Positions 7,004 to 64,000 of a stretch of 64,000 bases of DNA are shown here, one piece after another. Under the pieces are notes generated by a model. That model had not been told where the DNA came from and did not search any database. It saw only the letters and a program-made list of their open reading frames with translations. Positions within the stretch are counted from its first letter, which is position 1. The number at the start of each line of letters is the position of its first letter. Both the position numbers and the translations under genes were made by a program. Origin of the DNA: Candidatus Magasanikiibacteriota bacterium (GTDB taxonomy: Bacteria > Patescibacteriota > Patescibacteriia > Magasanikbacterales > UBA922); assembly GCA_016193335.1 (NCBI GenBank), contig JACPSK010000001.1:22716-86715 (forward strand), given 5' to 3'.

Positions 7004-7164
7004 GATTTCTCCGTTTCCTAGTCATCAGACGAATCCCGCAGCGGGATGCCGCGAGAACGCGCGCAAGTATACGCTCCACAGAAATCAAGGTCAAGCCGTG
7101 CTGTGGATAAACACAAGCCTATCCAATAGCTCAATTGCGCGAAAAAGCCCAAAACACTCCATAG

Positions 7165-7193
7165 ATTGATTTTCGCGCTTTTTTCTGATATGA
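7165..7193 (+). promoter_or_regulatory. Sigma70-like promoter TTGATT-17-TATGAT upstream of mraY
   Basis: Hexamers with 17-nt spacer read directly, 16 bp upstream of the mraY ATG. Confidence 0.4.
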
Positions 7194-7208
7194 TGGCTCT
7201 CAGTCTAT

Positions 7209-47758: not shown

Positions 47759-48727
47759 TTATGCTTTAAGCGTGGTGATAGGTCGGCTCTGGGTTATGTA
47801 AAATGAATTTCCCTCGCGAGCCCATTCAATATCACAGGGAAAACCATAATATTCTTCTATCTTTTTACAAATTCCGGCAAGTTCAATAATATCTTTCCCC
47901 TGTAATTTTTGTTTCTTTCCGGCCTCAAAGGTTTCTACCCATTCATTTGATTCTTTTGATTCTTCATGTTCTCCCATTTTATCTTTTCTGAGCAGCTGTT
48001 TTTCTTGATGAGAAACGCTAATATCAAGAATCATCATATCCGCTTTATCCACGACGTAGCTGTCCGGAGTGATCTGTCCACTTACCAGGGCTTCGCCAAG
48101 ACCAAGGCCCGCTTCTATGATCATCTGGTTTTTATCTTCAATAACCGGGTGCACGGTAAAGGCAACACCCGAAACTTCCGACTGAATCATTCTTTGAATG
48201 ACTACCGCCACTGAAACCGGAGTGTCATGCAGTTTTTTTTCAAAACGATAAAAAATGGCTCTGGGAGTAAACAAAGAAGACCAACATTGTTTAACGCGAT
48301 CCAGTAAATCCGTCTGGTTTGTGTTCAAAAAAGTATCCAACTCCCCTGCCCAGCTTGCTATTTCACTGTCTTCGGCAGTGGCGCTGGAACGCACAGCCAC
48401 ATAGGCCGCGCCAAGCTCTTGATAAGCCTGCAGGATCTCTTCGGACAAGTCTTTTGGCAGGGCGGCGTCGTGGATAAGATCTCTTATCACGTTGGCTGCC
48501 TTGTCTACAGAATTTATGTCTTCAGGGTTCACTTCTTTGAGCCTAGCCTCTATTTCTCCGGCAAGATCAGTTTCATCGATAAAACGATCAAAGGCTGAGG
48601 AAATCAGCACAAAACCAGGAGGCACTGATAAGCCTGCTTTTGTTAATTCTCCTAGAGAAGCGCCTTTCCCCCCTGCGAGGCGAACATCTTTTTTCGAGAT
48701 TTCGGTAAACGATTTTAGATATTTCAT
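47759..48727 (-). CDS. Stand-alone PPDK_N nucleotide-binding (ATP-grasp-like) domain protein of the PEP synthase/pyruvate phosphate dikinase/rifampin phosphotransferase family; no His domain
   Basis: GGKGASLGEL...SVPPGFVLIS, VAVRSSATAEDSEIASWAGELDTFLN, VAVVIQRMIQSEVSGVAFTVHP, FPCDIEWAREGNSFYITQSRPIT. Confidence 0.8.
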   Translation of the reverse strand: MKYLKSFTEISKKDVRLAGGKGASLGELTKAGLSVPPGFVLISSAFDRFIDETDLAGEIEARLKEVNPEDINSVDKAANVIRDLIHDAALPKDLSEEILQAYQELGAAYVAVRSSATAEDSEIASWAGELDTFLNTNQTDLLDRVKQCWSSLFTPRAIFYRFEKKLHDTPVSVAVVIQRMIQSEVSGVAFTVHPVIEDKNQMIIEAGLGLGEALVSGQITPDSYVVDKADMMILDISVSHQEKQLLRKDKMGEHEESKESNEWVETFEAGKKQKLQGKDIIELAGICKKIEEYYGFPCDIEWAREGNSFYITQSRPITTLKA

Positions 48728-48975
48728 GAATACAGCATAGCAGAAAAAATTGACAAAAACAAGAAAAAAGGATATGTCAGGAATGGCACACCAGGGCTGC
48801 CAATAGGGGTCTGTACTTTTCTCGGCAGCTCTACATAACCTGCTCTTTTGTCCTCATAGACTGCGGACGCGCCGATAAACGGTTCTCACCTTTACCGTTT
48901 GGCGCGTCCGCTTCCCACCACTCATAAAATATCTTCTTTTCAGACAAGCCCAAAATTCGCTTGTACGAATTTTGG

Positions 48976-49383
48976 TCAGGATCCAAATTTAACCTCATGT
49001 TTTTTTTCGAAACTTCGCATGAATTTCTTAAAACTCAAGCTGTCTTTGGCAAAGGCATTCCCGTCTTCTTGAACTTTATTTTCCAAATTTTTAAGCCGTT
49101 CATTATTATCTTCTACTGTCATTTGGATACCCATCAAACGTCCATTGACCGATGCGAGATTTATTTCAAGTTCTGAGACGTTTTGTTTTAACACAGAGAC
49201 ATCCTGCTTGAGGACAGAGACATCCCGCTTCAACACAGATACATCAGCTTCCACGATATTGAGGCTGGACTGCATGGCGGCATTGTCTTTTATAAAAACC
49301 ACGATTTCTAATATTTCATCAATTTTTTTGCCAAAATTTTCAAACATACAAACCTCCTTAAAAATTATACCTTCCATTATCAA
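48976..49383 (-). CDS. Small coiled-coil protein, paralog of 58597..58932; contains three tandem 21-nt (heptad DVSVLKx) repeats
   Basis: N-terminus FENFGKKIDEILEIVVFIKDNAA matches FEEKLNDILDIVIFIKDTAA of the paralog. Repeats at about 49195..49262. Confidence 0.5.
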   Translation of the reverse strand: MIMEGIIFKEVCMFENFGKKIDEILEIVVFIKDNAAMQSSLNIVEADVSVLKRDVSVLKQDVSVLKQNVSELEINLASVNGRLMGIQMTVEDNNERLKNLENKVQEDGNAFAKDSLSFKKFMRSFEKKHEVKFGS

Positions 49384-49470
49384 GCAAGCATATTTTCAGG
49401 TCAAGGACAAAGATTAAATTTTGGTAAATCTTATTTCGGAAGACCCTCGATATCCAAAAAACTCAGTGTC

Positions 49471-50991
49471 TCAATTTTGAGTGCGCAGAGCTTCTATACA
49501 AAGCTCAAAATCATTCCATATCTGTTCGACTTCTACGGCACTGTGGCCTATAACCGTACAACCAAATTTCCCAAAATCTTTCATGGGACTAATCATATGC
49601 ATAAAAACACCGCTTTTTTTCTTATGATTAAAATCAAGTCCTGTCATTTTGATCTGTCCAATAAGTCGTGTCGGCTCTATCCGCCTTAGCCAATCTTGTC
49701 TGCCAAAAGCTTCGGATGCCTTGTAATAGATGTCGCCTTGTTCGGATTCCAAGATGCCTCTTTTTTCATTATATACGGCCTCTGTAAGATACTTCACCCA
49801 AAAATAGGTGTGATTTGTGCCTCCTTTGCGGGCGTTTATTTCCACCGGCCACAAAGACCAAGGTTCTCGCGCATTTTTTCTGCTCAACAAAAAATCCACG
49901 GCTATTATCCCCAAAGCTCCGCGCCTTCTCGTCTCCTTGACAATTTTCAGTCCGGCGTCAACAATAAACTTTTGATATGTGAAATCCGCTGGAAATTTAA
50001 CACCCACATAATCCAAACCCTCCAATATCTGGTCATGAGTGGCAAGAGCTCGAATAGAATGATCAGGTAAAATTTCAAACTGCGCGCTTGGCGAAATTTT
50101 TATAGGCTCATCAATAAATACTTCCACGACCGCGCCCTGCTCGGCGCACGCACGTTCAAAAATAAAAAAATCTTGGCGTATACCTTTCTTAAGAGCCTTT
50201 TTAAATGTTTCAAAAGAAATGAAATTTTGAATTGAAAATTTGACAATGCCGTGTCCCGCGCCTCCACGATTTAGTTTGAGCAGATAATTTTTTACTTTTT
50301 GTTTTTTAGCAAGCTTCTGTAGGACATCATAAGCATGCTCCAAGGAAAAAATATCTTTCTCTCCTGGTATCAGATCCAAACCCGCCTTGGAAAAAACGTC
50401 ACGAGCTTCTGATTTGCTGTTCAAAGCCAAGGACGAATCTGTTAAACCGTATAGCGGAATCTGAAGAAGCACCGCAAGTCTGATTTCCTCAACATTCACT
50501 TGAAAAAATTCAACAAAGGCAGGCTGATTGTATTGTTCGATTGTCTCTTTGATTTTTTTAACATATTCGGAATTGTTCAATATGACTTCTGTAAGTGATT
50601 TCCCTTTTTTTGTGGGTATAGTTAAGATATCAAAACGTCCGCGTAATTCAGGCCTGTCCATTCCTGTAACTTTTGCAAGATGATCAAAAAAATAATCAAC
50701 AATGCAAGGCTCAAAACCTTCCGACAAAACGGCGATCACATGAGTTTTCGGCTGTTTCAAAAAATACGCGAAATACAAATAGCGTTCTTCGTAAAAAACA
50801 GAACCTTCAAATTCCCGCAAAATAAACTTATCAAAAGAAATGCTTGGAATAATCACTAAAGTCCTTCCGCCAGAATAATCTGGTTCTACAATATCGAAAT
50901 TTTTTGCAAGGTCAAACATAAGATGCGGGAAATTGAATCTACAAAAATATAAAGAAACTGTCATGAAATCATGGCTATGGCCATATTTCAC
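49471..50991 (-). CDS. ATP-grasp fold protein (unassigned subfamily)
   Basis: KLNRGGAGHGIVKF and AVDFLLSRKNAREPWSLWPVEINARKGGTNHTY resemble ATP-grasp large-domain strands. Confidence 0.45.
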   Translation of the reverse strand: MKYGHSHDFMTVSLYFCRFNFPHLMFDLAKNFDIVEPDYSGGRTLVIIPSISFDKFILREFEGSVFYEERYLYFAYFLKQPKTHVIAVLSEGFEPCIVDYFFDHLAKVTGMDRPELRGRFDILTIPTKKGKSLTEVILNNSEYVKKIKETIEQYNQPAFVEFFQVNVEEIRLAVLLQIPLYGLTDSSLALNSKSEARDVFSKAGLDLIPGEKDIFSLEHAYDVLQKLAKKQKVKNYLLKLNRGGAGHGIVKFSIQNFISFETFKKALKKGIRQDFFIFERACAEQGAVVEVFIDEPIKISPSAQFEILPDHSIRALATHDQILEGLDYVGVKFPADFTYQKFIVDAGLKIVKETRRRGALGIIAVDFLLSRKNAREPWSLWPVEINARKGGTNHTYFWVKYLTEAVYNEKRGILESEQGDIYYKASEAFGRQDWLRRIEPTRLIGQIKMTGLDFNHKKKSGVFMHMISPMKDFGKFGCTVIGHSAVEVEQIWNDFELCIEALRTQN

Positions 50992-51034
50992 AAAATCAAA
51001 CTAAACTATCCCCTTTGCGATCTCATATTTTATT

Positions 51035-52537
51035 TCACAATTTTCTCACCAAGCCCGCGTAGCCGTCTACTTCCACCATGTCGCCGTCCTTTAATACATC
51101 TCTCGCGAAGCGCGTTTGTATCACGCAGGGGATGCCGGCCTCTCGGGCCAAAGTGGCGGGGTGGGAGGTAATGCCATGGCCGCCGTCGCAGACTATGGCG
51201 CTCGCTTTTATAATAGCCGTGGAAAAACTGGGAACCACTTGCACACTCACGATTACATCTCCCTTTTCAACTTTATGACATTCGTCGGGATTCATCACGA
51301 TTTTAACAGGACCCTGTGCTTTGCCGGGGGAAACCGGCATGCCGGTAAATTCCGTCATCCGAGGGTCTGCGACACAAAATTCTTTATAAAATTTCTCTGC
51401 TTCTTCTCCGGTCGTCAGCTCCGTTTCTTTCCCTTCTCGTGCCCGCCACAGAGACAAAGTCATCTGTTCATTTACTTCATCCGAAAGATTCTCTCCATCA
51501 AGCAAAGCACGTCTCAGTTGGTCGGTTTTCAAAAAACGAACCTGCTTGAGAGCCAAATGAGCGCGTTTGCCGATTTCTTTAAGTACCGGATCAAAATGGT
51601 ACAAAGATTCAGCCACATAACGCTTGCGTAATTCTTTTAGATGCGCCGCGTCGCGCATGGCTTGAAATAATCCCGCTTCTTCTTTATTCAAAGCTAAAGT
51701 GCTCGTGTATTCTGTCTGTTTGTCTTCAATTTCCTGTAAATCATTGAGTAACATTTTGTGTTCTTCTCGGGGGTCTTGGCCAAGAAGCTCTTTAAGAAGT
51801 TTCACGATACTTGGAATATCTAAGACAGGATCCTCATAATCACGCGTAACCCAATAATAGGCTTCAAGATGTTGTTGCATTAAGGCATACAAAGATGCGT
51901 CACTTTGCAGATCCTTGAGAGTGGCATCGAGCAGAGTCTTCTTCCATCGGTGATTGTTTGCTATCTGTATAGCCAATTCAAGCAAAGCCTTTCTATGCAC
52001 CGTGGATACCATTGCCGAGGGTTGTTTGGTTAAAATATTGAGCATCTCCGAAGCTTGTGAAGGATTATCTGAAATTCTTTTTTCAATAATCTTATACAAC
52101 TCTTCATTCAGATAGTCTTCCATAATCCAGATCGTGCCATAACTTGTGTACACGATTTTATACAACCCTTCATATTCGAGCCAGGCATTGTATAATTCTT
52201 CATTTGAGAAGGAACGCAAATCTTTGCTGGAAATACGTTTACAAAATTCAACGAGAATTGTTCCATTTTTATTCTGTAAATCAACAAAACGCGCGTACAT
52301 CCCGGGGTCTTTATGCAGAAGCTCCACAATATGTCGTCCGATCTCTTCAAAACTTTTGGCATCGTGGAAATAAATACCGAGCCTGTCTTTATATATCATC
52401 ATGGTATCTTTGAGATTCATGTCCACATATTCGTGGAGCATTTCAGTCATACCCTCCAGAGACATATAATTCGGGAACGGGCTGATGCGCTGACGCTGTG
52501 AAAGTAAAATCCATTTCCCGCTCTGTTGTTTCGTCAT
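51035..52537 (-). CDS. PEP-utilizer phosphohistidine (swivel) domain protein with ~400-aa helical N-terminal domain, paralog 1 (RPH substrate-binding + His-like)
   Basis: C-terminus GGHGITSHPATLAREAGIPCVIQTRFARDVLKDGDMVEVDGYAGLVRKL. Confidence 0.7.
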   Translation of the reverse strand: MTKQQSGKWILLSQRQRISPFPNYMSLEGMTEMLHEYVDMNLKDTMMIYKDRLGIYFHDAKSFEEIGRHIVELLHKDPGMYARFVDLQNKNGTILVEFCKRISSKDLRSFSNEELYNAWLEYEGLYKIVYTSYGTIWIMEDYLNEELYKIIEKRISDNPSQASEMLNILTKQPSAMVSTVHRKALLELAIQIANNHRWKKTLLDATLKDLQSDASLYALMQQHLEAYYWVTRDYEDPVLDIPSIVKLLKELLGQDPREEHKMLLNDLQEIEDKQTEYTSTLALNKEEAGLFQAMRDAAHLKELRKRYVAESLYHFDPVLKEIGKRAHLALKQVRFLKTDQLRRALLDGENLSDEVNEQMTLSLWRAREGKETELTTGEEAEKFYKEFCVADPRMTEFTGMPVSPGKAQGPVKIVMNPDECHKVEKGDVIVSVQVVPSFSTAIIKASAIVCDGGHGITSHPATLAREAGIPCVIQTRFARDVLKDGDMVEVDGYAGLVRKL

Positions 52538-52556
52538 AATATTAAAAATGCTTTAT

Positions 52557-53402
52557 TTACTCAATTTTGGGTTGTAGACGAGTTTCTATATCCTTTCCCC
52601 ACACGGAGAAAGTGGGATTTTCATTCAAAGAAAAATCAACCTTAAAGCCCTCCGCGTTCTCTATACCGCCTCCGCGTTCAACCGGAGTGAGACCCGTACG
52701 GGCGCTCACCACAGCATCAATGGCAGTGGCATTGGCAGCGCTCACTACGACAATGCGTTTCCCTGGTCCAAGCTGCTTCGCGAGCATAGCCACTCTCTTC
52801 TCGGCCAGCGCTATTCCTTCCTCAACGCGAGCATTCACCTGTTCCGGTCTTTCAACTTCATCGGGCCAGTCGGCAAGAAACCAGGTAGCTACACGCTTAT
52901 CTTGGATAGTTTCTGGAATGCCTAAGGCTCTGTGACGTTCTGGATCGTCCAATTGCGCTTTATACTCATCCGGTATATTGGCGGCGCCAATATCTCTGCG
53001 CGAGCGAGACTTTGGCTCGTCAATCGTACGCAATCCTTCATGCTGCGCATGCATCTCGCCTGTTTGCGGATCCCAACGCATTTTTATTGGTGAAAAAAAT
53101 GTAAATCCACCCTCCTTCAACCGTTCCGCGACACGCATGACAGAAAGTTCTGCGCGCGGATTCCCACTGTCGAAAACCTGAATAATATCCTTGTCCGGGT
53201 CCAATTCACTCATCAAACGTTCTGCCGCCTGATCCAGCTGTGATTCTCCTTCCGGCGTCAAACCACGCTTGGGGTTTGTTTTATCTTTTGTAGTTTCTCC
53301 ATGACGCAAAACATAAGCAGTCATTACCGGCATTTCACGCCTTATTTCTCGATATTCACGAGGAACTTCACCATGGGCGCCGTCTGGCATAGTATAATTC
53401 AC
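52557..53402 (-). CDS. Histidine phosphatase superfamily (phosphoglycerate-mutase-like) protein
   Basis: RHG motif YVLRHGETT near N-terminus. GC looks elevated (about 50%) versus neighbours. Confidence 0.55.
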   Translation of the reverse strand: MNYTMPDGAHGEVPREYREIRREMPVMTAYVLRHGETTKDKTNPKRGLTPEGESQLDQAAERLMSELDPDKDIIQVFDSGNPRAELSVMRVAERLKEGGFTFFSPIKMRWDPQTGEMHAQHEGLRTIDEPKSRSRRDIGAANIPDEYKAQLDDPERHRALGIPETIQDKRVATWFLADWPDEVERPEQVNARVEEGIALAEKRVAMLAKQLGPGKRIVVVSAANATAIDAVVSARTGLTPVERGGGIENAEGFKVDFSLNENPTFSVWGKDIETRLQPKIE

Positions 53403-53495
53403 TAAAATATTGACTTATGTAATAAAAATTTCTCAGATGTACCTCTGCTCGCGTCAAGTATATAAACCTTTTATGTTTAAGACAAGAAAGAACCT

Positions 53496-54101
53496 TTACC
53501 CGCCACAGACCTTATATATACGCGCTATCGCATCTCCCACGTTTTTGTACAAAATAGTCCGGGCTCCCATTCGTTTTGGTTCTTTCAAATTAGCCTCCTG
53601 GTCATCAATGTAAAGCATCTCTTCCGGTTTGACGCGAAAACGCTGACAGAGAAAATACATCGTCTCGGATTTTGCTTTTGGCAATCGATATTCCCATGTA
53701 TTGATCATATTCTTTGAACCAAACACTTTCCAGACTTCGGGGAATAAAACGCGTGTATCGGCCCATTGACTCCGCATATTTTTGGTAAGAATGATAATGC
53801 GGTACTTATTTTTTAATCGCTTTGCGCAATGCAGTATGGGCTTGTTTACTGAAAGCAAACTATAATGCAAATTTCGCAATTCTTTAATGGTTAAAGGTAA
53901 ACTCAAATCCTGTATGGTCCGTGTCCATGCCTCAGTTTGAGTGATTTCCCGCAAAGCCGCCCTGTTTACATATTTTGTGTACATGACTTCATATACCCGC
54001 TCGTATGGAATGCTGAGACGGCGAGACAGAGCTCTGGCCGTGGCCACATAACCACCTTTAAAAATCACACCATGAGCGTCGAAGATGATAAGCTTAATCA
54101 T
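53496..54101 (-). CDS. HAD-like hydrolase (variant motif I D-A-H)
   Basis: LIIFDAHGVIF motif I-like and YIDDQEANL motif IV. Confidence 0.45.
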   Translation of the reverse strand: MIKLIIFDAHGVIFKGGYVATARALSRRLSIPYERVYEVMYTKYVNRAALREITQTEAWTRTIQDLSLPLTIKELRNLHYSLLSVNKPILHCAKRLKNKYRIIILTKNMRSQWADTRVLFPEVWKVFGSKNMINTWEYRLPKAKSETMYFLCQRFRVKPEEMLYIDDQEANLKEPKRMGARTILYKNVGDAIARIYKVCGG

Positions 54102-54234
54102 AAACTCATATAATTAATCGGCCAACATATAAAATTACAATCAATTTCACAGCCTTTCTGTAGCAGACTGAGGGAGTAAGGGATACATTTTTTCATGACA
54201 AGTCGCATTGACTTTAGATTCAGTATATCCCAGA

Positions 54235-55749
54235 TCACAGCTTTCTGACTATCCCTCTGCGCGCGTCCACTTCCACCATGTCACCGTCTTTCAGCACCTT
54301 TGTAGCGATCTTAGTGCCTATCACGCAAGGAATCCCAAGTTCCCGAGAAACAATGGCCGCGTGGCAGGTAATGCCGCCCATGTCGGTAACAATGGCGGCA
54401 GCCTTTTTCATGGCTGACACGATTTCCGGGATGGTCATTTCAGACACCAGTATATCGCCCTTCTCCATTTTAACCATCTCTTTGGTGCTATTTATGATTT
54501 TCACAGAACCTGTGGCCATTCCAGCAAAGGCGATCTGTCCGCTTAGCTCAGTGACGTTCTCTGTATCAGTCTTTTCTTCTTGATCAATCCTCATGCGTGC
54601 TTTCAGTCCTCTCGCCGCTTCTCCGCTCACAAACTCAGCCTGTTCTGTATTAGCGTCAAGAAACAACAAGGAATATTCACTCCGTTCACGCAAAAGCTCG
54701 GCGTCTGTTCCGCCCTTCATCAATGCTTCTTTTAATTCGTCGGGCAAAAGAAAGGGAATATGCTCCATGCTTACATACAAACGACGAGCGGCTTCCCGCA
54801 GTATCCGATGAAGCGTGTACCAAGACATATACTGGTGTTCCTTGCTCCACCCACGCTGAAACATAAAATCTTTGGCAATACGGAATACGGCGCGATACTG
54901 CGCATCCATGTTTAAGAGAGAATATAGACGATCCTGTTCACGTAATGTATTCTTCAATTGATCCTCATGCGCCTTGATCTGTTCTACAATATGAATTTCA
55001 ACGCCTGCGTTCAAAATTTCATTCACATGAGAAATAATATCTTTTTGGGTCCAGGCCGGCCCTACACAGCCAAAAGCCAAAAAAGCATATTTTTGGGTAT
55101 GTTCGATAATAGTCGGATCTTCTGGAGATAAAGAGATCTCGCCCCTCTCGGCTCTCTGAGCAAGTTTAAGCGTATCAATATGCTCTTGACTGATAAGGGT
55201 GTGATCCGTGGGTGTAGTAAGTGTAGAGAGGGTTACTCCGGGGCTTATGGCAAGTCCTCTTTCTTTTATTATTCTCTCTAAATAATCCAGCAAAAAAATA
55301 CTAAAAGCCTCGAAATGCAAATCCATATTCCAGGCGATCGCTCTAATGACATGCAAACGTTGCATCGGATGATATAATTCATCAAAGAGCTCTATCAGTT
55401 CTCTGTTCGTGAGCGATTTTATATCTGTGTTATGAACAATTTTTTTATGCAATTCTTGGATGCGAGGAACCAAAACCGTATTTGATTCATGATGCAGATC
55501 ATCAATCCATTCCGGACGATTCAAAATGGTTTGAATACTGTGTTCAGCGGTCTGTCTCCATTCTGCCCCGATTTGATACATGTTGGTAAGAATTCCCTGA
55601 TATTCATATATGCCTCTAAGAGGCGGTTCCATGCCAAAAGATTTGTTTGAAACAATAAGAGGAGTAAGCAAATGCAGAGGAGGATACTTATGCAGTTTTT
55701 CAATCAAAAGCCAGTGTTCGGATAAAAACGCGGTATGCAGATTGTTCAT
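54235..55749 (-). CDS. PEP-utilizer phosphohistidine domain protein, paralog 2
   Basis: C-terminus GGITCHAAIVSRELGIPCVIGTKIATKVLKDGDMVEVDARRGIVRKL. Confidence 0.7.
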   Translation of the reverse strand: MNNLHTAFLSEHWLLIEKLHKYPPLHLLTPLIVSNKSFGMEPPLRGIYEYQGILTNMYQIGAEWRQTAEHSIQTILNRPEWIDDLHHESNTVLVPRIQELHKKIVHNTDIKSLTNRELIELFDELYHPMQRLHVIRAIAWNMDLHFEAFSIFLLDYLERIIKERGLAISPGVTLSTLTTPTDHTLISQEHIDTLKLAQRAERGEISLSPEDPTIIEHTQKYAFLAFGCVGPAWTQKDIISHVNEILNAGVEIHIVEQIKAHEDQLKNTLREQDRLYSLLNMDAQYRAVFRIAKDFMFQRGWSKEHQYMSWYTLHRILREAARRLYVSMEHIPFLLPDELKEALMKGGTDAELLRERSEYSLLFLDANTEQAEFVSGEAARGLKARMRIDQEEKTDTENVTELSGQIAFAGMATGSVKIINSTKEMVKMEKGDILVSEMTIPEIVSAMKKAAAIVTDMGGITCHAAIVSRELGIPCVIGTKIATKVLKDGDMVEVDARRGIVRKL

Positions 55750-55884
55750 AAAACAGTTTGAAATTTGTTAGTCATCCAGCTTAGAATTCCACTAAATGGG
55801 TTACCTTACCTGGAAAAATGTTAACGCGGGTTTTCGAAAAAACTGATACAAGGTTCATTTTACGATTTTCTCGCATCGCGAAAC

Positions 55885-57411
55885 TCAGAGTCTCTCAACT
55901 TTCCCATGAGTCGCGTCAACGCGTACTTTATCCCCATCGGCTAGCAAGCGCGTGACGTTTTTGACCCCTACCACACAAGGAATATTCAATTCACGGCTGA
56001 CAATTGCCGCGTGGCAGGTAACTCCCCCGTCTTCGGTGACTATAGCTCCGGCCTTTCGCATGGCAGGCAATAAACTGGGGAAAGTAGTATGCGCCAACAT
56101 GATATCGCCTTCATTCATTTTGTCCATTTCAGCGACCGTGTTGACAACCTTTACCTTAGCCACGATGTCGCCCGGGCAGGCACAGCTGCCTTGCAGTTCA
56201 TCGGCGTCTGATTCAAGTTCTTTTTCAAATTCAAGACTTTGTACAAAAAACTCCGCGGCTTCGCCGGTCAGTATATTTTGCCTGCCGTCAATATAGCTGA
56301 GTACGCTAAAAGCTCTGCGCTCGTTTACTATATGCGTATCCATATGTCCGCTCTTCAGAGCTCGGTTAAACTCTTCTTCAGTGAGATGATTAATTTGCGT
56401 CAATGAAACGCAGAGACGCCGAGCGGCCTCTTTGCGAAGCAGATCCATACAATAAAATCCGTAAAACATGGCGTATTTCCGAAAATCTTTGAGCCAAATG
56501 ATATCTCGAGCCACTCCGAGGAAATATCCTGTCTGCTCAGAAATCGGCAGTCGGTTTAGCAGTTGCTTCTGTTTTTCTTTGATGACCTCGTTTCTTTCCT
56601 CAGCTTCCCGAAGCGTCGAGGCCGCGTCTTGGCCGGAAGCAAAAAAATCCGCTAAAGCATACAAATAATGTTCAAGATGATAAGCCGGGCCAACGTATGT
56701 GTACGGCGTCCAACGCCATTTCTTGTAATGTTCAATAAGTAAACTGCGGCGTTCTTCGGCCATAGTCTCAAAACGCGCCTCTATTCCTTTTTTTGTATCA
56801 AATATATTTTTGGTATAAGCATCTTTGCCAATGGTTAGAGCCAGTCTCAAAAAATCGGTTTCTTCTGCCTGCGAAAAATTCTGTTCGCTTGGCGTGGTGA
56901 GCACGGTGTAGGCGCGCATAAGCTCTTCGTCATCATATCCGGACAAGTCATGTTTTAATTTTTCTATGATGTGTTTGGCGAGCAATTCACCATCGCTATC
57001 CACAAACCAGGTCGTGGAAACCGCGATCAGATGCCCTTCAATTTGCAAACGAGAGAGACGCGCGCTCATCTCTATGATCTCCTCATTGCTCAAGGTTCCG
57101 ATGTCTTTGGACTCTACCAGTCGGGCATAGGCTATATATTCTTTGTTAATTTTTCTGCACTGCTCGTGGATGCTTCGTACCCATGCCGGTTCATGTTTAA
57201 TCTTTTCTAAGACAGCCTTTATATACACGGTCATTTGATCGGCCGGAAAATAGGCGTCCGCGCCTTGATCTTTGTATATGATAATTCCGTCCTTTAACGT
57301 ATTGAGGAGCTCCGTTCGTTCTGCATATAAGATAATATCCCGAGGCAAATAATGCATGACCTTATAGTCGAGCAAACCCGGAATCATGGAAAAATTTTTC
57401 CGCCAAGCCAT
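55885..57411 (-). CDS. PEP-utilizer phosphohistidine domain protein, paralog 3
   Basis: C-terminus GGVTCHAAIVSRELNIPCVVGVKNVTRLLADGDKVRVDATHGKVERL. Confidence 0.7.
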   Translation of the reverse strand: MAWRKNFSMIPGLLDYKVMHYLPRDIILYAERTELLNTLKDGIIIYKDQGADAYFPADQMTVYIKAVLEKIKHEPAWVRSIHEQCRKINKEYIAYARLVESKDIGTLSNEEIIEMSARLSRLQIEGHLIAVSTTWFVDSDGELLAKHIIEKLKHDLSGYDDEELMRAYTVLTTPSEQNFSQAEETDFLRLALTIGKDAYTKNIFDTKKGIEARFETMAEERRSLLIEHYKKWRWTPYTYVGPAYHLEHYLYALADFFASGQDAASTLREAEERNEVIKEKQKQLLNRLPISEQTGYFLGVARDIIWLKDFRKYAMFYGFYCMDLLRKEAARRLCVSLTQINHLTEEEFNRALKSGHMDTHIVNERRAFSVLSYIDGRQNILTGEAAEFFVQSLEFEKELESDADELQGSCACPGDIVAKVKVVNTVAEMDKMNEGDIMLAHTTFPSLLPAMRKAGAIVTEDGGVTCHAAIVSRELNIPCVVGVKNVTRLLADGDKVRVDATHGKVERL

Positions 57412-57445
57412 ATGAACATAATGGTATACAATATGTTTGACAAAA

Positions 57446-57474
57446 GCAAGAAAAAATGCTATACTAAGCTGTTA
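57446..57474 (+). promoter_or_regulatory. Consensus sigma70-type promoter TTGACA-17-TATACT upstream of the high-GC gene 57652..58368
   Basis: ttgacaaaagcaagaaaaaatgctatact read directly. AT-rich, host-like. Confidence 0.5.
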
Positions 57475-57651
57475 TTCTTCAATATATACATTCTGCTTAT
57501 TCAAGCAGAATTTTATCGTTTATTTTGAGTCTGTCTCTGGTCTTAATAAACTAAGGCAAAAGACAGGCCCAAAACGCGCGCCTGCTTCGGGCTGAGCTAC
57601 CCTCTCTCAAGGGTGCTGAAGCAGAATCTCACAACGACAAGGGAGAAAAAC

Positions 57652-58368
57652 ATGGCCTTGGCCAAGGTGTCCGTCTACGACTTGCGTCACTATGAGAGGC
57701 AGAAGGGTTGTCCCGGTCAACCCCCGACCTTGTACGGGGAACTGACCTGCCGCGTGTTGCGAGAGATTTTGCTCGGGCGCAGGGCGCTCGAGGACATGCT
57801 GGTCTTGACCAGTCCGCAGGAGCGGGCCTGGGGGACCGGGCGCCTCGTTGCCTCGCCTGAGGCCGAGATGGGCCACTTTGACATGCGGAAGATGAACTGG
57901 CTCGAGAGCGCCACCACGCGCCTCATGGATGGCGGCAAGGAGCTCACCGAGCTAGCCGGCCGCTTCGGGGTCAGTGTCGAGCAGGCGCTCATGGTCCTGC
58001 CCCAGTTCGCGAGCCTTGTTTGCGACTGGACCGTGGAGGCCTTCTTCGGCCTCACGGGTGCCATCGCGGATGGCGAGCACCAGAACGTCTTGATGTTCTC
58101 GCATGGCGGGCAGGTGGATGCCCGAGCCATTTTCATGAAGAAGTTCAAGGCAGAGCCGGGCATGAAGCCGCAGAACTTGAAGCCGATGCTCGACATGCGC
58201 TTCCTGAACGGCCGCTGCGCCGACACCTGCGAGGGCTACGTCTACGACCTCCAGGTGGACACCGCGGCCGGCCTCATCGAGCGGGTCTTCGATGTTCAGC
58301 GCATCGAGCTCCCGGCCCAGTTCAAGGCACTGGGGGGCGGCGCCCTGGACCGCCTGCTCGCCGGCTGA
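57652..58368 (+). CDS. Hypothetical protein on a high-GC island (start at MALAKV with GGGAGA RBS)
   Basis: GC3-rich codon usage unlike flanks. Sole plus-strand gene within a minus-strand cluster. Confidence 0.5.
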   Translation: MALAKVSVYDLRHYERQKGCPGQPPTLYGELTCRVLREILLGRRALEDMLVLTSPQERAWGTGRLVASPEAEMGHFDMRKMNWLESATTRLMDGGKELTELAGRFGVSVEQALMVLPQFASLVCDWTVEAFFGLTGAIADGEHQNVLMFSHGGQVDARAIFMKKFKAEPGMKPQNLKPMLDMRFLNGRCADTCEGYVYDLQVDTAAGLIERVFDVQRIELPAQFKALGGGALDRLLAG

Positions 58369-58559
58369 TCTTTTCCGCGGCCGCCAAATCTAGCCCGATT
58401 CGGGCAGATACCTATCCGGCGGCCGCGCTTCGCCCCTCCTTTTCGACTGCTCTTTGGAGCGCGTCCCAATAATCGGTCCCTACCACTACCGATGGACGCG
58501 CTCTTCCCACCTCTTATGCGTTTTGTCTTTATCCGCTCCATAAGACGCTTGAGAAGTAA

Positions 58560-58590
58560 AAACATCCGGCTAAGCCGGATGTTTTTTGTT
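58560..58590. terminator. Bidirectional rho-independent terminator (aaaaacatccggctaagccggatgttttttg)
   Basis: Perfect stem flanked by an A-run and a T-run. Confidence 0.6.
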
Positions 58591-58596
58591 GATTTT

Positions 58597-58932
58597 CTAT
58601 GATTCTGATTTCTGCACTTCCAGACGCTTGACTCGTTTTTTCAAAACCACTATTTCTCTGGCAAACAAACCGCCGTCTTCATGGACTTTTGTTTCAAGAT
58701 TTTCAAAGCGAATATCGATTTTATCCAAGGTATAATGAACTTGGGAGAGTTCAGCTTTCACAGAACACATATCTTCGTTAAGAATTGAGACCTGTTGTTG
58801 CAAAACCGAAGTATCGGCTTTAAGTTCGCTTCTCAATTCCCGGATATCCTCTTTTGTCGCCGCAGTATCCTTTATGAAAATGACAATATCCAATATATCA
58901 TTTAATTTCTCTTCAAACATCTCTGACGTCAT
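58597..58932 (-). CDS. Small coiled-coil protein, paralog of 48976..49383
   Basis: Shared N-terminal FEEKLNDILDIVIFIKDTAA motif; heptad-rich. Confidence 0.5.
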   Translation of the reverse strand: MTSEMFEEKLNDILDIVIFIKDTAATKEDIRELRSELKADTSVLQQQVSILNEDMCSVKAELSQVHYTLDKIDIRFENLETKVHEDGGLFAREIVVLKKRVKRLEVQKSES

Positions 58933-59030
58933 AATAGTATTCCTCCCTTCTATACTTCACAGCTAGCAGTGAAGTACTTCAGTGTAAATTAATAGTACAA
59001 TTCCAATAATACTTCAGACATCACTGCCTA

Positions 59031-60569
59031 TCAAGGCAAAAGATTAAATTTTTCTAATCTACGTACTATACCAAGCGCGGTGTCTACTTCCACCATATCA
59101 CCATCTTTCAATATTTTTGTCGCGCATCTTGTACCTACAATGCAAGGCAGACCCAGCTCTCTCGACACAATGGCCGCGTGCGAGAGCAAACCGCCTTCAT
59201 CCGTTACAATGGCCCCGGCACGTTCCATGGCTGGCACAAGAAGCGGATTTGTTGCCGAAGCCACCAAAATATCGCCCCGCTCCAATCGTTCCGCGTTTTT
59301 ATTCGTAAGCACAATACAAACTCTGCCCTCACAAGGCAAGGCGCTTTTCGAGGCGACCTGACCCTTCAATTCTTTCACCATATCATACTCTTCGTAACGC
59401 AGCTCATCTTTCTTATATTCAATCAGATCAGCCCCCACATATACCATAATCGTCTTGTCATCGAGCACAATGCTCGGGTCCTTTGCTCGAGCCTCGAGAT
59501 CCTCTGAATTGACTTCCAAAACGCCAGCCTTAAGAGATCGCAATAATTCCTCACCCCGAAGATTCACCAGCTTAATATAGGAAATATCAAAGTCATTCGC
59601 AAGGCGTTGAAATAAAGTACTAAACGTATGCACCGCGTAAGCGTAAGAAGCCTCAGCATTATTGGAAGCCGCCGCCCAAGCGGCCGCTGAATTAATATGC
59701 TTTAAAGTTACGTCTGATAAACCGAGGATATCTCGAAGCAGAAATCCTTTTTTGCTCATGCGTTTCGCTTCCTCGATTTTTTTTCGCTCTTTATCCAAAC
59801 CTTTTTTTATTAAATCCCGCACGCGATTTGTTAAGACTTCTCTATCGTATCCACTGCCATGCAAGAGATACCTGCCCAAATGAGCAAACATAGCGAGATG
59901 AGCATCCACTCTTCGATTGAATTCTTCATTCATACCATGGGATTCGGCATATTCAGCCAACTCACACAAGGCAATTCGTTCCAGTTGGTATTCCGAGCTC
60001 TCGGGAAGTTGTAATAAGTCGTTAAAATATTCATTTTGTTTCAGGACATCGCCTTCAGATTCTGCAATGGCTTTTAAAATAATATCAGAGAGAATGCGGT
60101 TGACCATCACATAGTGATAGGCATATGCCCACTGCGACCTCGTAGTCAACAAAAATCCTTCCATAGCCGTATAAATACTTGTTGAATCAGCCCGACTAAA
60201 ATCCGTATCTTTGTATGTGTCCGCATGTGAACGCACTCGCCGCATGCGCGCATTATAATCATGAGCATAATCCACCAGTATGCCCGGGCTGGATAATTCT
60301 AGATTCCGTAGATATTCAATGTAATCATCGTATGTCCTTTTCGAAAACCAACGCGCGCCGTCCAGCTGCCGATACTCACAGGGTTCATATTCTGTTTGTT
60401 TTTCGTATAATCCAAGCAAGCCATGGCGATAGGCTTCCATGACCGTATCAATCAAAAGCACTGGATGCGGATCGCCGCGACGCGCGACTTCAACCCAAAA
60501 CGTCATATAAACCTGTTTATATTTTACGAATAATTCCTCTTTTCGCGTCCACTTCCACGGTATCGCCAT
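59031..60569 (-). CDS. PEP-utilizer phosphohistidine domain protein, paralog 4 (start trimmed to MAIPWKW to avoid 92-nt overlap with paralog 5)
   Basis: C-terminus GGLLSHAAIVSRELGLPCIVGTRCATKILKDGDMVEVDTALGIVRRL. Confidence 0.65.
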   Translation of the reverse strand: MAIPWKWTRKEELFVKYKQVYMTFWVEVARRGDPHPVLLIDTVMEAYRHGLLGLYEKQTEYEPCEYRQLDGARWFSKRTYDDYIEYLRNLELSSPGILVDYAHDYNARMRRVRSHADTYKDTDFSRADSTSIYTAMEGFLLTTRSQWAYAYHYVMVNRILSDIILKAIAESEGDVLKQNEYFNDLLQLPESSEYQLERIALCELAEYAESHGMNEEFNRRVDAHLAMFAHLGRYLLHGSGYDREVLTNRVRDLIKKGLDKERKKIEEAKRMSKKGFLLRDILGLSDVTLKHINSAAAWAAASNNAEASYAYAVHTFSTLFQRLANDFDISYIKLVNLRGEELLRSLKAGVLEVNSEDLEARAKDPSIVLDDKTIMVYVGADLIEYKKDELRYEEYDMVKELKGQVASKSALPCEGRVCIVLTNKNAERLERGDILVASATNPLLVPAMERAGAIVTDEGGLLSHAAIVSRELGLPCIVGTRCATKILKDGDMVEVDTALGIVRRLEKFNLLP

Positions 60570-62037
60570 CTTTGAGGACTTGAGCCACTTGTTTCGCGCC
60601 GATAACACAGGGTATCCCCAATTCTCTGCTCACGATGGCCGCGTGCGAGGTAACCCCGCCCTGTTCGGTTACAATCGCGCCGGCACGTTTCATGGCAGGC
60701 AACAAATCTGGATCAGTGGAAATGGATACCAAAATGTCGCCATCTCGCAATTTTTTCATGTCACCCGCCCGAAATATCAACGCCACTTTACCCTTCGCGT
60801 ATCCCGGAGACGCCACCTGTCCTCTAAATTCGCTGAGTGAGATATCGACCTTCTCGAACGTTTGCTTCATAATTTCTTCAGCCTCTTTCCCGGACAAAAT
60901 AATTTCCTTGCCTTGCTCCGCGTAATACGCGCAGCGCTCGGTTCGTTTTTGAAGTTCCTCAGCATTACATTCATGACGCAATAACATAGCTTCCACTTCA
61001 TTCGGAACCGCGAAGCGAAGTTGCTTTACCGAAAGCTCCATCCGCAATGCAATTTCTTTAAGCACTCGATCCATCTGATAAAGCGCATATAGTTGGGCAT
61101 AACGCCGATATATTTTTGTTACCATAAAATCGCCGAACACAGAGCACAATCTCCTGAGGTCAAGATTGGCGTGTATACGTTCAAAAAGCGCCTCTCGATT
61201 TTGAGCGGCTTCTTTCAAACGTTCTTCATTATTTTTTCGTATCTGCGAGGCTGATATGCCTTTCGAAAAAATATCTTTCAGCTCTCGCACAAGCATTTCA
61301 AGTGTATTTTCACCTGCCACGAAAATATATTTTGTGTAGTGATATTTTTCACGATGCTGTTCCAGCATGGCCCGCACGGAATCATTCAATGAAACAAAAA
61401 TCTTGGCCAGATTTTTTTCCAAAAACAATTTTTTCTGAGCAAGATCTTTTTCTATTTCAACCGCTATTTGCAAAAGTTCGTCCTGTTCTGTATATATCAA
61501 AGATCTTTTTGTCGGCTGAGTAAGCGTAACAAAATATTCCGGTATCATTTCGTCTGCTCCCATAACGGAAGAACGGAGCATCTCTAATACACGATTCGTA
61601 AAATTATTGTGAAACATGTCCGACGCGGGAGGAATCCAACACCATGTATAATATTCCTGGTGCGCGTCAAAATGACCCTTGTATATCCGCCATAATTGTT
61701 CGTTCGACAATTCTTTCAGCCCATCTTTTGACGGAATTTTTTCGCAATATGAACGCAAGCTATCGGCCTCTCGGATTATTTCTCTATTTATGGTATGGCC
61801 ATAATCCGGTTCCTTTATGATTCTATTCACCAGATGTTCACCCATTTCATATGAATCGCGATCGTCGAAATAAAACCACAGTTCATAGCCCCGAAAACCC
61901 GCGAGTACTTTGCCGTATGCCCGTCCTGTGTGCCTGCCGAATAAATGTACAAAAGAATTGAGCCATATATAAGAAAAAAACAGATCAATATCTTTGATAT
62001 GCTCACCAAGAATCCATGGCCTGTCTTCTCCGATCAT
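60517..62037 (-). CDS. PEP-utilizer phosphohistidine domain protein, paralog 5
   Basis: C-terminus GGVTSHAAIVSRELGIPCVIGAKQVAQVLKDGDTVEVDAKRGIIRKI. Confidence 0.7.
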   Translation of the reverse strand: MIGEDRPWILGEHIKDIDLFFSYIWLNSFVHLFGRHTGRAYGKVLAGFRGYELWFYFDDRDSYEMGEHLVNRIIKEPDYGHTINREIIREADSLRSYCEKIPSKDGLKELSNEQLWRIYKGHFDAHQEYYTWCWIPPASDMFHNNFTNRVLEMLRSSVMGADEMIPEYFVTLTQPTKRSLIYTEQDELLQIAVEIEKDLAQKKLFLEKNLAKIFVSLNDSVRAMLEQHREKYHYTKYIFVAGENTLEMLVRELKDIFSKGISASQIRKNNEERLKEAAQNREALFERIHANLDLRRLCSVFGDFMVTKIYRRYAQLYALYQMDRVLKEIALRMELSVKQLRFAVPNEVEAMLLRHECNAEELQKRTERCAYYAEQGKEIILSGKEAEEIMKQTFEKVDISLSEFRGQVASPGYAKGKVALIFRAGDMKKLRDGDILVSISTDPDLLPAMKRAGAIVTEQGGVTSHAAIVSRELGIPCVIGAKQVAQVLKDGDTVEVDAKRGIIRKI

Positions 62038-62086: not shown

Positions 62087-62500
62087 TTAAGGAACTCTCT
62101 TGGTGTAAGTCGCGTCAAACTCAAAACCGGCGAAAGAAGTCAAAACCAAAATTTCAAGAAGAGAGAGATAAAATTTCGGGTCCGCGTAAAATTGTAAAAA
62201 TAAATCTTTGAAGTTGCTTCCGAGGTAGGCTGAAATGGATCCAATCACCAAGAGATCAAGAAAAAAACCGACTATGAGGGTGAGAATGCCCAACATGAAT
62301 CCTTTTTTCAAGGAAGGGGCGTCAACCCTAAAATACCATTTGGAAAGCAACAAGGTCAAAGGAATGGCAAGTACCCAAAACACGGCGTATTCTCTGAACC
62401 CAAACACAGGAATTCCTGATACGATTTGTATTAATGCAAGTACTATAAATGAAAAAACGTAGAAGAAAACACCAAAACACAAAGCTCTTTTATAGTTCAT
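62087..62500 (-). CDS. Hypothetical 4-TM membrane protein
   Basis: Hydrophobic helices only. Confidence 0.35.
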   Translation of the reverse strand: MNYKRALCFGVFFYVFSFIVLALIQIVSGIPVFGFREYAVFWVLAIPLTLLLSKWYFRVDAPSLKKGFMLGILTLIVGFFLDLLVIGSISAYLGSNFKDLFLQFYADPKFYLSLLEILVLTSFAGFEFDATYTKRVP

Positions 62501-62518: not shown

Positions 62519-64000
62519 CTAATCAAAACTAATAATCTGATCAGCCTGGATCTTTTGTCCGGCTAGAGAAGGAGGCTTGGAGTCGGAATTCTCAGCAAAA
62601 GAACTCTTTGTCCGGGGAAGAACAACTTTCGCTGGTTCTATATTTTGTTTTTCTTGAAGACTACTCTGATTTTGATTTTCTCCGCCATAATCCTGAGTTT
62701 TGTTTGGAGAAAATCCTTGAGCCATAGCCCCGCTGGCCTGCGTGCCCGCCCCTGGTCCTTGCTTCCGTTTTCGGTTCCGTTTTCGCTTCCTCTTTTTCTT
62801 GTCCTGATTTTGAGGCTGAGGATCCTCAACCTTCTGTTGTGGAAAGCCGCTTTCTTCCCTGAGCGAAGGCGATGCTTCATTCTTGACTGCGGGCGGAAGC
62901 CTTGGCTCTTGTTGTAAACCTAAAAGCTGATCAGATCGTCCAAAATTAGATTCGGGTTCAGACCTCTTGTTCTCAACGCGAGAAGACCGAATCTCGGGTT
63001 TGTCAGGCTGTCTGAACTCGGGTTTCTGAACGCCTGCCGCCTGCATGAGTGCTTCTCTGTCTTCTTTGGGTAAAAGATCTCTCAATGAGACGGCCTTGTT
63101 TTGTTTTTGATCCGGTCGTTCCGGTTTTGGAATGACAAGAGGTTTAGCCTGTTTCGGGCGCTCGTCTAATTCATCGTCTTCAGTGTCAATTTCATCTTCA
63201 TCGCCATCTTCGTCTTCTTGCAATTCTCCAAGACCGCTCCAACGTAAAATCTTTTGCTCTATAACATCTCGCTGTTTGGCGTAGCGTTCGCGGGACACGC
63301 GTATGACTTTTTCCGCCGAACCGGTGGGTTTGCCAATGGGCGGCATGGTTTTGGCGCTAAAAGGCTGAGAAGCCACCCCATCTATCATGAGTTTGAGAAT
63401 AACGTCATATTTGGCAAGATTAACTACGTCTTCTTCAGTAAAAGTGGGAGTGAACTCTTTGGTTAGTGTCTCTGAATCAGCGCCGCCCACTCTAAAGGTC
63501 ACAATGGTGCCCACATTCCCGAACACCGCGTCAGCCACTATTTCATCAAGCTGCATAATATATTGATGGGCCATGATCAGGCTCAGTCTATATTTTCTCG
63601 CCTCAGATAAAATATTGGCAAAACTGGGAGTGGCGAAATTTTGAAATTCATCGACATAGAGAAAGAAATCCACGCGATCCTCTTCCGGTGTGTCCACCCG
63701 TTCCATGGCCGCAAGCTGGATTTTGGTGATAAGCATGCCTCCCAAAAGCCTGCTATTGTCTTCTCCAATCCGTCCTTTGGACAGATTCATGATCAAAATT
63801 TTTCCAGAATCCATGATCTCGCGTATGTTGATGGTGGATTTCACCTGAGCCACCATATTGCGGATAACCGAAGCGGACAAAAATTGCCCTATTTTATTTT
63901 GAATCGGAGCAACGGCTTCTTGCTGATAACGATCGTTGTAATTGGCGAATTCATTTTGCCAAAATGATTTTATAACCGGATCATGGAGTTTTTTGACCAC
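62519..64000 (-). CDS. TraG/TraD/VirD4-like (or HerA/DUF87-like) AAA ATPase C-terminal region with long acidic then KR-rich low-complexity tail; N-terminus beyond window
   Basis: FLYVDEFQNFATPSFANILSEARKYRLSLIMAHQYIMQL (Walker B DE ... RKY ... Q sensor) typical of T4 coupling proteins. Tail EDEDGDEDEIDTEDDELDE...KKKRKRKRNRKRK. Confidence 0.45.
   Translation of the reverse strand: MVKKLHDPVIKSFWQNEFANYNDRYQQEAVAPIQNKIGQFLSASVIRNMVAQVKSTINIREIMDSGKILIMNLSKGRIGEDNSRLLGGMLITKIQLAAMERVDTPEEDRVDFFLYVDEFQNFATPSFANILSEARKYRLSLIMAHQYIMQLDEIVADAVFGNVGTIVTFRVGGADSETLTKEFTPTFTEEDVVNLAKYDVILKLMIDGVASQPFSAKTMPPIGKPTGSAEKVIRVSRERYAKQRDVIEQKILRWSGLGELQEDEDGDEDEIDTEDDELDERPKQAKPLVIPKPERPDQKQNKAVSLRDLLPKEDREALMQAAGVQKPEFRQPDKPEIRSSRVENKRSEPESNFGRSDQLLGLQQEPRLPPAVKNEASPSLREESGFPQQKVEDPQPQNQDKKKRKRKRNRKRKQGPGAGTQASGAMAQGFSPNKTQDYGGENQNQSSLQEKQNIEPAKVVLPRTKSSFAENSDSKPPSLAGQKIQADQIISFD

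Follow-up and report, generated by a model that had tools for sequence, protein, structure and literature searches.

The stretch of DNA analyzed here (the window, 64,000 nucleotides) comes from a 686-kb contig (JACPSK010000001.1, positions 22,716 to 86,715) of a Candidatus Magasanikbacteria metagenome-assembled genome (MAG; GCA_016193335.1). Between 47.7 and 62.0 kb of the window (locus tags HYY51_00390 to HYY51_00445), it carries a gene array in which a single stand-alone ATP-grasp protein of the PPDK_N type is accompanied by five paralogous proteins, W1 to W5, each with a divergent helical N-terminal domain (N-domain) and a C-terminal phosphohistidine swivel domain. The array probably encodes a two-component small-molecule dikinase system of the kind represented by rifampin phosphotransferase (RPH), HpeHI and PpsAB, in a one-to-many form in which one ATP-grasp protein would charge several acceptors. 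A check of the open reading frames (ORFs) verified the coordinates of all genes named in the initial annotation of the region, with the minus-strand genes densely packed, and the gene cluster described there was confirmed as real and far beyond chance (Table 1).

A stand-alone ATP-grasp protein and five acceptors

The ATP-grasp protein (322 aa) matched PF01326 over profile positions 2-313 of 328 and contained no other domain, as had been proposed. Its matches among Protein Data Bank (PDB) sequences were phosphoenolpyruvate (PEP) synthase (8a8e, 8.1e-71), RPH (5fbs, 3.1e-56) and a stand-alone 387-aa chain (9goj, 1.9e-48), and it could be aligned along its whole length with the corresponding domains of PEP synthase and RPH-Lm. 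K22, R117, T136 and E297 (RPH numbering) were all kept in the alignment, as was the QSRP motif; in RPH-Lm these four are ATP-site residues tested by mutagenesis (PMC4844700). Among the 120 best matches listed, nearly all were stand-alone proteins of ~310-385 aa, most of them 61-70% identical and three 87-100%, and the protein was better conserved than any acceptor, which is in keeping with a hub that has many partners. This supports an intact family of stand-alone proteins that is strongly conserved, and a pseudogene fragment of one of the paralogs, which the initial annotation had named as a possible undoing of its proposal, is ruled out. The protein would be the equivalent of HpeI and PpsB and of RPH's ATP-grasp domain.

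The five acceptors (~500 aa) align over their full length, and each has one C-terminal PF00391 swivel domain (E 1.4e-15 to 5.3e-27); a Pfam scan of all five revealed no domain beyond PF00391. In line with the initial annotation, the catalytic His and the motif GG-x-T/L-S/C-H-A/P-A...RE were invariant in all five window paralogs, with the W1 swivel carrying the variant GGHGITSHPATLAREAGIP. The His was also kept, in the context T/S-x-x-G-G-x-x-x-H, in nine paralogs from two other genomes. Between paralogs, the N-domains (first ~400 residues) are 13-21% identical and the swivel domains 37-59%. W4 is the most divergent, with an N-domain 13-16% identical to the others, the motif GGLLSH and one clear subfamily representative (P0345). 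In sequence, the acceptor swivel domain is closest to archaeal-type PEP synthase (8a8e, 1.9e-44). Concerted evolution of the swivel domains within the genome was considered and rejected, as the W5 swivel is 64-69% identical to its orthologs and 39-59% to its neighbours.

AlphaFold models were obtained for W1 (AF2; pLDDT 93.4, pTM 0.90) and W5 (pLDDT 92.5, pTM 0.89) and compared with solved structures using Foldseek. The sole full-length matches of the two models were RPH-Lm entries (E 1e-13 to 1e-14), with a query TM-score (TMq) of 0.54-0.58 for four RPH-Lm entries compared with ~0.2 for swivel-only proteins. For W1, the top six matches were all RPH-Lm (E 1.8e-14), four with a TMq of 0.54-0.56 and two entries of the G527Y mutant with 0.36-0.38. 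The comparison with the RPH rifampin-binding domain that the initial annotation had called for thus came out in its favour, and these models support a fold shared between that domain and the acceptor N-domains. At the sequence level, a profile of 53 W5-family sequences aligned at positions 189-509 with RPH 528-866 (E 3e-28), and W3 residues 264-507 matched the NCBIfam RPH-type model PRK06241.1-2 (E 2.1e-27). The identity of the acceptors to RPH is 14-17%. In low-identity alignments, the RPH block Y-R666-E667-Y-P-K670 falls on K-E-L-R-K in W1, K-D-F-R-K in W3, R-G-W-S-K in W2, K-I-Y-R-R in W5 and S-N-N-A-E in W4. Read cautiously, the R-E-x-x-K block appears kept in W1 and W3, half-kept (as basic residues) in W2 and W5, and lost in W4.

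Each window paralog has its own ortholog subfamily in other genomes. In L084, from a related genome, the orthologs of W2 and W3 are 84% and 82% identical, respectively. An ortholog of W1 (L001e) scores 526 bits, and the W1 subfamily is conserved and usually paired with a HAD gene. These relationships suggest that the acceptor subfamilies are old, maintained lineages which are combined differently from genome to genome.

Arrays, fusions and phosphatase partners in other genomes

[quoted passage not shown] A scan of GTDB species genomes gave 79 loci, ~35 of them labelled CPR and ~25 DPANN or other archaea; a few automated MAGs among them bear implausible labels. With the N-domain profile, 3,414 clusters at 50% identity were detected among 1.84 billion representatives. 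Most are single-module proteins of ~500 aa, and annotations of the family go no further than ‘PEP-utilizing enzyme’ or ‘hypothetical’. Several of the array MAGs (L005, L008, L010, L036, L039, L041, L046, L053, L055, L074 and L083) are titled ‘uncultured Gammaproteobacteria’, ‘Methanosarcinales’ or ‘Rhizobium’; these labels are probably wrong, since gene content and synteny are CPR- or DPANN-like. A phage origin of the family was rejected as far as IMG/VR was covered, with two swivel-only matches among the 600 pattern-matched stretches examined.

Acceptor genes were counted in the 48 CPR/DPANN loci that span 15 kb or more, using ORFs together with swivel and PPDK_N profiles within ±10 kb. The loci had a median of 4 acceptor genes and a maximum of 12, with at least two in 35/48, at least four in 27/48 and at least eight in 8/48. 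Adjacent acceptor genes lie on the same strand in 147 of 150 pairs; the intervening gap has a median of 4 nt, and an overlap is seen in 41%. The number of stand-alone PPDK_N genes per locus was never above one. The initial annotation had suggested searching for such co-occurrence in other CPR genomes, and it is indeed found there. Where present, the PPDK_N gene tends to be the last of the array (the window, L001, L003, L055 and L064), and a single one stands beside 10 acceptors in L055 and 9 in L064. The largest array (L046) has 12 acceptors, with 11 consecutive acceptor genes filling 16 kb. One-to-one forms also exist, such as the minimal archaeal locus L013, in which a helix-turn-helix (HTH) regulator, an acceptor, PPDK_N and a HAD gene follow one another. 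Between related genomes, both the number of paralogs (1 to 12) and the set of subfamilies vary. Loci with acceptor arrays include L017, L021, L022 and L044 from Saccharibacteria, a group for which transformation and Tn-seq are available.

Some neighbouring genes recur. PfkB kinase was found at 7 loci, TrmB at 5, transketolase at 4 and PGI/G6PD at one; this co-location with sugar-metabolism genes may be a weak clue to the substrate, not enough to name one. In several DPANN loci among L013, L014, L019 and L035, an HTH_10-family regulator gene lies immediately upstream of a single acceptor gene, and in L018 and L021 a gene with a PIN_3 domain lies between the PPDK_N and acceptor genes.

Gene fusions were counted among the 150 best N-domain representatives, with H denoting an acceptor module. 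There are 12 double-acceptor and 2 triple-acceptor proteins, one PPDK_N-H-H protein (1217 aa) and one H-H-H-PPDK_N-H protein (2309 aa). The latter (L087, 2012-8941; GCA_053531335.1, JAIYRC010000040.1) is encoded by an uninterrupted ORF in the standard code with four intact His motifs, in a genomic context that looks archaeal. As far as gene organization can indicate, it is the strongest available evidence for one ATP-grasp domain working with several acceptor modules.

Phosphatase genes accompany the acceptors as well. The HAD gene is the commonest accessory of the arrays, with homologs in 12/82 loci, and lies directly upstream of a W1-type gene in L011, L040 and L065. Two fusions adjoin the PPDK_N gene of L056 (Parcubacteria; 4253-6505 (+) and 6516-8180 (-)): one joins a HAD domain with a W1-type acceptor, the other an RHG phosphatase with a homolog of the window's GC-rich ORF. 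A phosphatase is tied to the system by the HAD-acceptor fusion. The array HADs of the window, L011, L025, L040, L041, L065 and L083 keep the nucleophile Asp and motifs II-IV, and in place of the Asp+2 general acid/base they have Tyr, His, Asn, Thr, Ser or Gly (motif I of the window protein reads D-A-H). Such an apparent loss of Asp+2 is unusual for a plain phosphatase. The RHG phosphatase of the window, in which the RHG motif is present, has homologs in L040, L056 and L066, and a homolog of the small coiled-coil (CC) proteins lies within the L065 array.

The initial annotation had correctly listed an ATP-grasp protein, an RHG phosphatase, a HAD-like hydrolase and two small coiled-coil paralogs as interleaved with the acceptors, but had missed the GC-rich gene on the plus strand. 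This gene, named ‘phosphoglycerate mutase family protein’ by NCBI, is a called gene on 7 contigs and has an ortholog at the same position in L084 (3563-4270). An origin as an assembly artefact or through very recent insertion of foreign DNA was rejected on the basis of these occurrences and of the fused homolog in L056, and the gene belongs to the system. Pairwise BLAST revealed no similarity between its product and the other RHG phosphatase. Its GC content is 65%, with 0.88 at third codon positions (GC3), in a genome of 43% GC with flanking genes at a GC3 of ~0.48. The L084 ortholog has a GC3 of 0.93 and is 60.5% identical, compared with 82-84% for the flanking acceptors, so that the extreme GC3 seems to be maintained while the protein evolves fast. 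The other interleaved ATP-grasp protein, a BesA-like ligase, had been listed among the interleaved genes by the initial annotation. No homolog of it was found in the other 82 loci scanned; it was rejected as a core component and is treated as an accessory or mere neighbour.

Proposed mechanism and competing explanations

From the domain identities, folds, conserved catalytic residues, array architecture and gene fusions described above, we infer phosphotransfer from one ATP-grasp protein to all five acceptors, a dikinase stoichiometry and a role for the phosphatases. The single ATP-grasp protein would bind ATP and pass the beta,gamma-pyrophosphoryl group to the swivel His of whichever acceptor docks, with the conserved swivel domain serving as a common docking surface. 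The gamma-phosphate would then leave as inorganic phosphate (Pi), and the swivel would swing back to its own helical RPH-like domain and give the beta-phosphate to a bound small molecule, for an overall reaction of ATP + X -> AMP + Pi + X-P. Downstream, the phosphorylated products could be substrates of the HAD and both histidine-phosphatase-family proteins, which might otherwise serve to reset the phospho-His. Because the substrate domains are almost unrelated in sequence, each acceptor would be expected to phosphorylate a different compound.

The initial annotation did not recognize the split arrangement as a described system. This part of it does not hold, since a 2025 paper on HpeHI groups it with CreHI and PpsAB (phenylphosphate synthase) in a subfamily of two-component small-molecule dikinases, which have the same domain split (PMC12167813). 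In HpeHI, HpeI corresponds to the RPH ATP-grasp domain and HpeH to the rifampin-binding and swivel domains; HpeH alone moves phosphate between substrates, its His mutant is inactive, and HpeH, CreH and PpsA are ~45% identical to one another (PMC12167813). Like the array, these systems have a separate ATP-grasp protein of ~320-390 aa and a second protein in which an RPH-like helical domain is followed by a C-terminal swivel His, with the signature T/S-x-x-G-G-x-x-x-H and the same expected swivel mechanism. They are, however, 1:1 pairs from operons for aromatic catabolism in Actinobacteria and Proteobacteria, whereas the window array is 1:5 and acceptor numbers elsewhere in CPR/DPANN reach 12. 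The acceptors here are also shorter (~500 aa versus ~640 aa, 71 kDa) and, except for W4 with its GGLLSH, retain a PEP-synthase-type Thr before the His. Unlike theirs, the array has embedded phosphatase genes and no carboxylase or aromatic-pathway genes, and PpsA-type NCBIfam models (PRK08296.x) match its acceptors mainly in the swivel (~100-145 residues), far below the cut-offs. The array is not closely related to them.

RPH itself is a single polypeptide of ~865 aa (5HV1, 5FBS; PMC4844700), and the same domains are encoded here by separate genes. The likeness lies in the full-length fold match of the acceptors, the conserved ATP-grasp residues and the partly conserved R-E-x-x-K block. The window proteins score 49-275 bits with the RPH model NF041857, which has a cut-off of 999. 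At 14-17% identity the pocket does not align reliably residue by residue, and nothing suggests rifampin as a substrate. The prodiginine ligases PigC, RedH and HapC belong to the same superfamily, as seen from NCBIfam matches, and use ATP-grasp and swivel chemistry to activate a small molecule. These and other fused RPH-family enzymes are ~880 aa long and occur in secondary-metabolite clusters, and the proteins of the array score far below their cut-offs. Among the characterised relatives, the compounds acted on are hydroxylated aromatics or secondary metabolites, for instance phenolics, rifamycins, pyrroles and flavonoid-like molecules. Literature searches gave no account of CPR/DPANN arrays of this kind, and a CPR resistome survey merely counts a few ‘rph’ matches (PMC8651080). 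What appears undescribed is thus the one-to-many array form, the phosphatase partners and the CPR/DPANN spread; the domain split was already known.

Four observations weigh against a one-to-many dikinase system. First, a PPDK_N gene lies within ±10 kb in only 15/48 of the long loci, counted per locus, so that a second ATP-grasp gene may exist elsewhere in a genome. The proposal of one ATP module serving several acceptors, made in the initial annotation, finds support in the stoichiometry of the arrays and in the fusions of PPDK_N with several acceptors. Second, in the low-identity alignments W2 and W5 lack the acid residue of the RPH block and W4 has no recognisable block at all, and for some paralogs a different mode of action or a lack of activity is possible. 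Third, a profile of the five N-domains alone gave no match to PDB sequences at E <= 1. The RPH homology of the first ~190 acceptor residues consequently rests on predicted folds, with extended profile alignments as a second basis for the N-terminal half as a whole, and the substrate-module origin claimed for the N-domains holds for the predicted folds of W5 and W1 but finds no counterpart in that profile search. Finally, a kinase together with a phosphatase would form a futile cycle unless there is an intermediate step, and none is evident in the window.

The charged acceptors might instead act on proteins or regulate enzymes, as in a phosphocarrier or histidine-kinase-like system in which the RHG (SixA-like) and HAD proteins reset the phospho-His. 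There is a precedent in VadK (Rv1127c), a PPDK-derived autophosphorylating kinase with a regulatory function via protein interactions (PMC13400623). VadK is a member of the same broad family diverted from central metabolism, but it is a single polypeptide with no RPH-like substrate domain and no arrays. A regulatory function would also agree with the three phosphatase genes interleaved in the array, with the weak SixA-likeness of the RHG phosphatase (1.2e-05) and with a HAD protein without the Asp+2 general acid, which would fit an unusual phospho-donor. However, the full-length fold match is RPH, a small-molecule kinase, with the substrate-binding domain included, and the RPH phosphate-handling block appears kept in W1 and W3. 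As many as 12 paralogs whose ‘pocket’ domains have strongly diverged would suit a range of ligands better than a range of regulatory targets, and every split relative that has been characterised is a small-molecule kinase (PMC12167813). A regulatory phosphocarrier is therefore considered unlikely. Of the two options left by the initial annotation, an RPH-like small-molecule kinase array or a phosphorelay, the former is favoured and the latter is retained only as a minority alternative.

The tight packing of the genes, which are co-directional and often overlapping, could also be that of a single hetero-oligomeric enzyme, with the paralogs as subunits of one complex working on one substrate or polymer as in multimeric PEP synthases. 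Natural poly-H fusions hold several modules in one chain, and HpeH is reported to dimerise (PMC12167813). A fixed complex would not be expected to vary between 1 and 12 paralogs and to draw on differing subfamily sets in related genomes; moreover, a minimal system of one acceptor, PPDK_N and HAD exists in L013, and the catalytic His is kept in every paralog. We regard this explanation as quite improbable.

Very little probability is likewise given to one productive pair, in which the ATP-grasp protein works with W5 as the ‘core’ acceptor and the remaining ones would be duplicates in decay, decoys or functionally unrelated proteins. The W5 type is by far the best conserved, and W4 has neither a recognisable RPH block nor the Thr before the His. 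Against this, none of the five ORFs is disrupted or lacks the catalytic His, every paralog has an ortholog subfamily to itself, the orthologs of W2 and W3 in a related genome are 82-84% identical, and the W1 subfamily is conserved along with its HAD partner, all of which points to purifying selection rather than decay. Neither a dN/dS close to 1 in the non-core paralogs nor a His missing from many orthologs was seen. A split PEP synthase or pyruvate phosphate dikinase (PPDK) of central carbon metabolism is effectively refuted: archaeal-type PEP synthases are the nearest sequence relatives of the ATP-grasp and swivel domains (8a8e, 8.1e-71 and 1.9e-44), the motif GG-x-T-S/C-H-A-A is shared with PEP synthase and PPDK, and PEP synthase models are the top NCBIfam matches, but these models score 80-329 bits with cut-offs of 598-740, the PEP/pyruvate-binding TIM-barrel PF02896 is found in no cluster gene nor elsewhere in the window, and the split genes place the swivel C-terminal to a substrate domain with the RPH fold instead.

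Array layout, surroundings and biological meaning

The positions of the genes and other features of the array are given in Table 1.

Table 1. Features of the array, in window coordinates.
Feature	Position	Strand	Evidence and remarks
PPDK_N ATP-grasp component	47759..48727	-	PF01326 E 1.6e-91; last gene of the array
CC1, small coiled-coil protein, paralog of CC2	48976..49383	-	phmmer 4.7e-17 vs CC2; weak coiled-coil-type matches
BesA-like ATP-grasp ligase	49471..50991	-	NF042917 1.9e-33, residues 42-470; PF24923 1.6e-15
W1, acceptor (H-type) paralog	51035..52537	-	PF00391 1.4e-15
RHG histidine phosphatase, branch 1, His_Phos_1	52557..53402	-	PF00300 1.2e-05; TIGR00249 SixA 1.2e-05
HAD-family hydrolase	53496..54101	-	PF00702 9.9e-08
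W2, acceptor (H-type) paralog	54235..55749	-	PF00391 1.9e-25
W3, acceptor (H-type) paralog	55885..57411	-	PF00391 4.1e-26
Sigma-70-like promoter site	57437-57465		11/12 matches; best of the region; precedes the (+) GC-rich gene
GC-rich histidine-phosphatase/phosphoglycerate-mutase-family gene	57652..58368	+	motifs LRHYE, FSHGG
Perfect 14-bp palindromic hairpin with A-run and T-run flanks	58558..58586	.	between the convergent CC2 and GC-rich ORF
CC2, small coiled-coil protein, paralog of CC1	58597..58932	-	locus tag HYY51_00435
W4, acceptor (H-type) paralog	59031..60569	-	PF00391 9.6e-24; alternative GTG start 60608
W5, acceptor (H-type) paralog, most widely conserved ‘core’ type	60517..62037	-	first gene of the array

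Listed in the direction of transcription, the genes are W5, W4, CC2, the plus-strand GC-rich gene, W3, W2, HAD, RHG phosphatase, W1, BesA-like ligase, CC1 and PPDK_N. The GC-rich gene is a separate transcription unit within the array, and the hairpin next to it is probably a bidirectional terminator, which would divide the array into at least two transcripts. The start of W4 is ambiguous (ATG 60569 or GTG 60608), and its overlap with the end of W5 is at least 53 nt; from comparison with CC2, the true start of CC1 is likely the Met at ~49347. The longest-ORF translations of the ATP-grasp protein, the RHG phosphatase, CC1 and W4 had no exact match in the protein collection, so that the deposited annotation may use other starts for these four. 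Swivel and PPDK_N profiles detected no other such ORF anywhere in the window. A scan with Rfam gave three tRNAs in the window, all outside the cluster, and nothing within it. The PADLOC models gave no match to the PPDK_N protein, the acceptors, the phosphatase or the ATP-grasp protein, and only coiled-coil noise for the small protein; a known anti-phage defence system was accordingly rejected.

Directly upstream of the array lie genes for a small membrane protein (62087-62500 (-)) and a coupling-protein-like component of a type IV secretion system (TraG-D_C/TrwB; 62519-64000 (-)). The coupling-protein gene is conserved in place in four other distinct loci (L001, L040, L041 and L065; L002 duplicates L001), and MnmA is found downstream of the array in the window and L001. 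Isolated genes with extreme GC3 occur elsewhere in this genome besides the phosphatase gene. A second GC-rich single-gene island (5801-7150) holds an ORF at 6017-7003 (-) for a 328-aa hypothetical protein (HYY51_00150; GC3 0.98), which has no Pfam match and is found on 9 contigs of the collection. A milder island (2201-2750) holds an ORF resembling cytidine deaminase by eye (CAE...PCxxC). At 22668-26948 (-), the window also encodes a 1426-aa protein with subtilase (S8), FG-GAP, CarboxypepD_reg and ASPIC/UnbV domains, probably a large surface-associated protease.

CPR and DPANN genomes are ~0.5-1 Mb in size and have very few recognisable metabolic enzymes. Despite such tiny genomes, many of these organisms devote 8-18 kb to arrays of this kind, and the acceptor family is at risk of being misread as PEP synthase in metabolic reconstructions. 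More tentatively, and with more doubt than confidence on our side, the arrays might form a modular ‘phosphorylation platform’ throughout CPR and DPANN, in which one ATP-grasp protein and up to a dozen exchangeable acceptors, each with a compound of its own, constitute the main small-molecule kinase repertoire of these metabolically minimal symbionts, in place of conventional kinases that they lack, or a chemical-defence resistome directed at metabolites of the host or community, with modules and phosphatases exchanged between genomes and even between domains of life. The hypothesis that one ATP-grasp protein charges many acceptors is directly testable with a few recombinant proteins. If true, it would represent a simple natural design for kinase multiplexing, useful for enzyme engineering, and would reveal an unexplored side of the physiology of ultra-small symbionts, in nutrient scavenging or detoxification.

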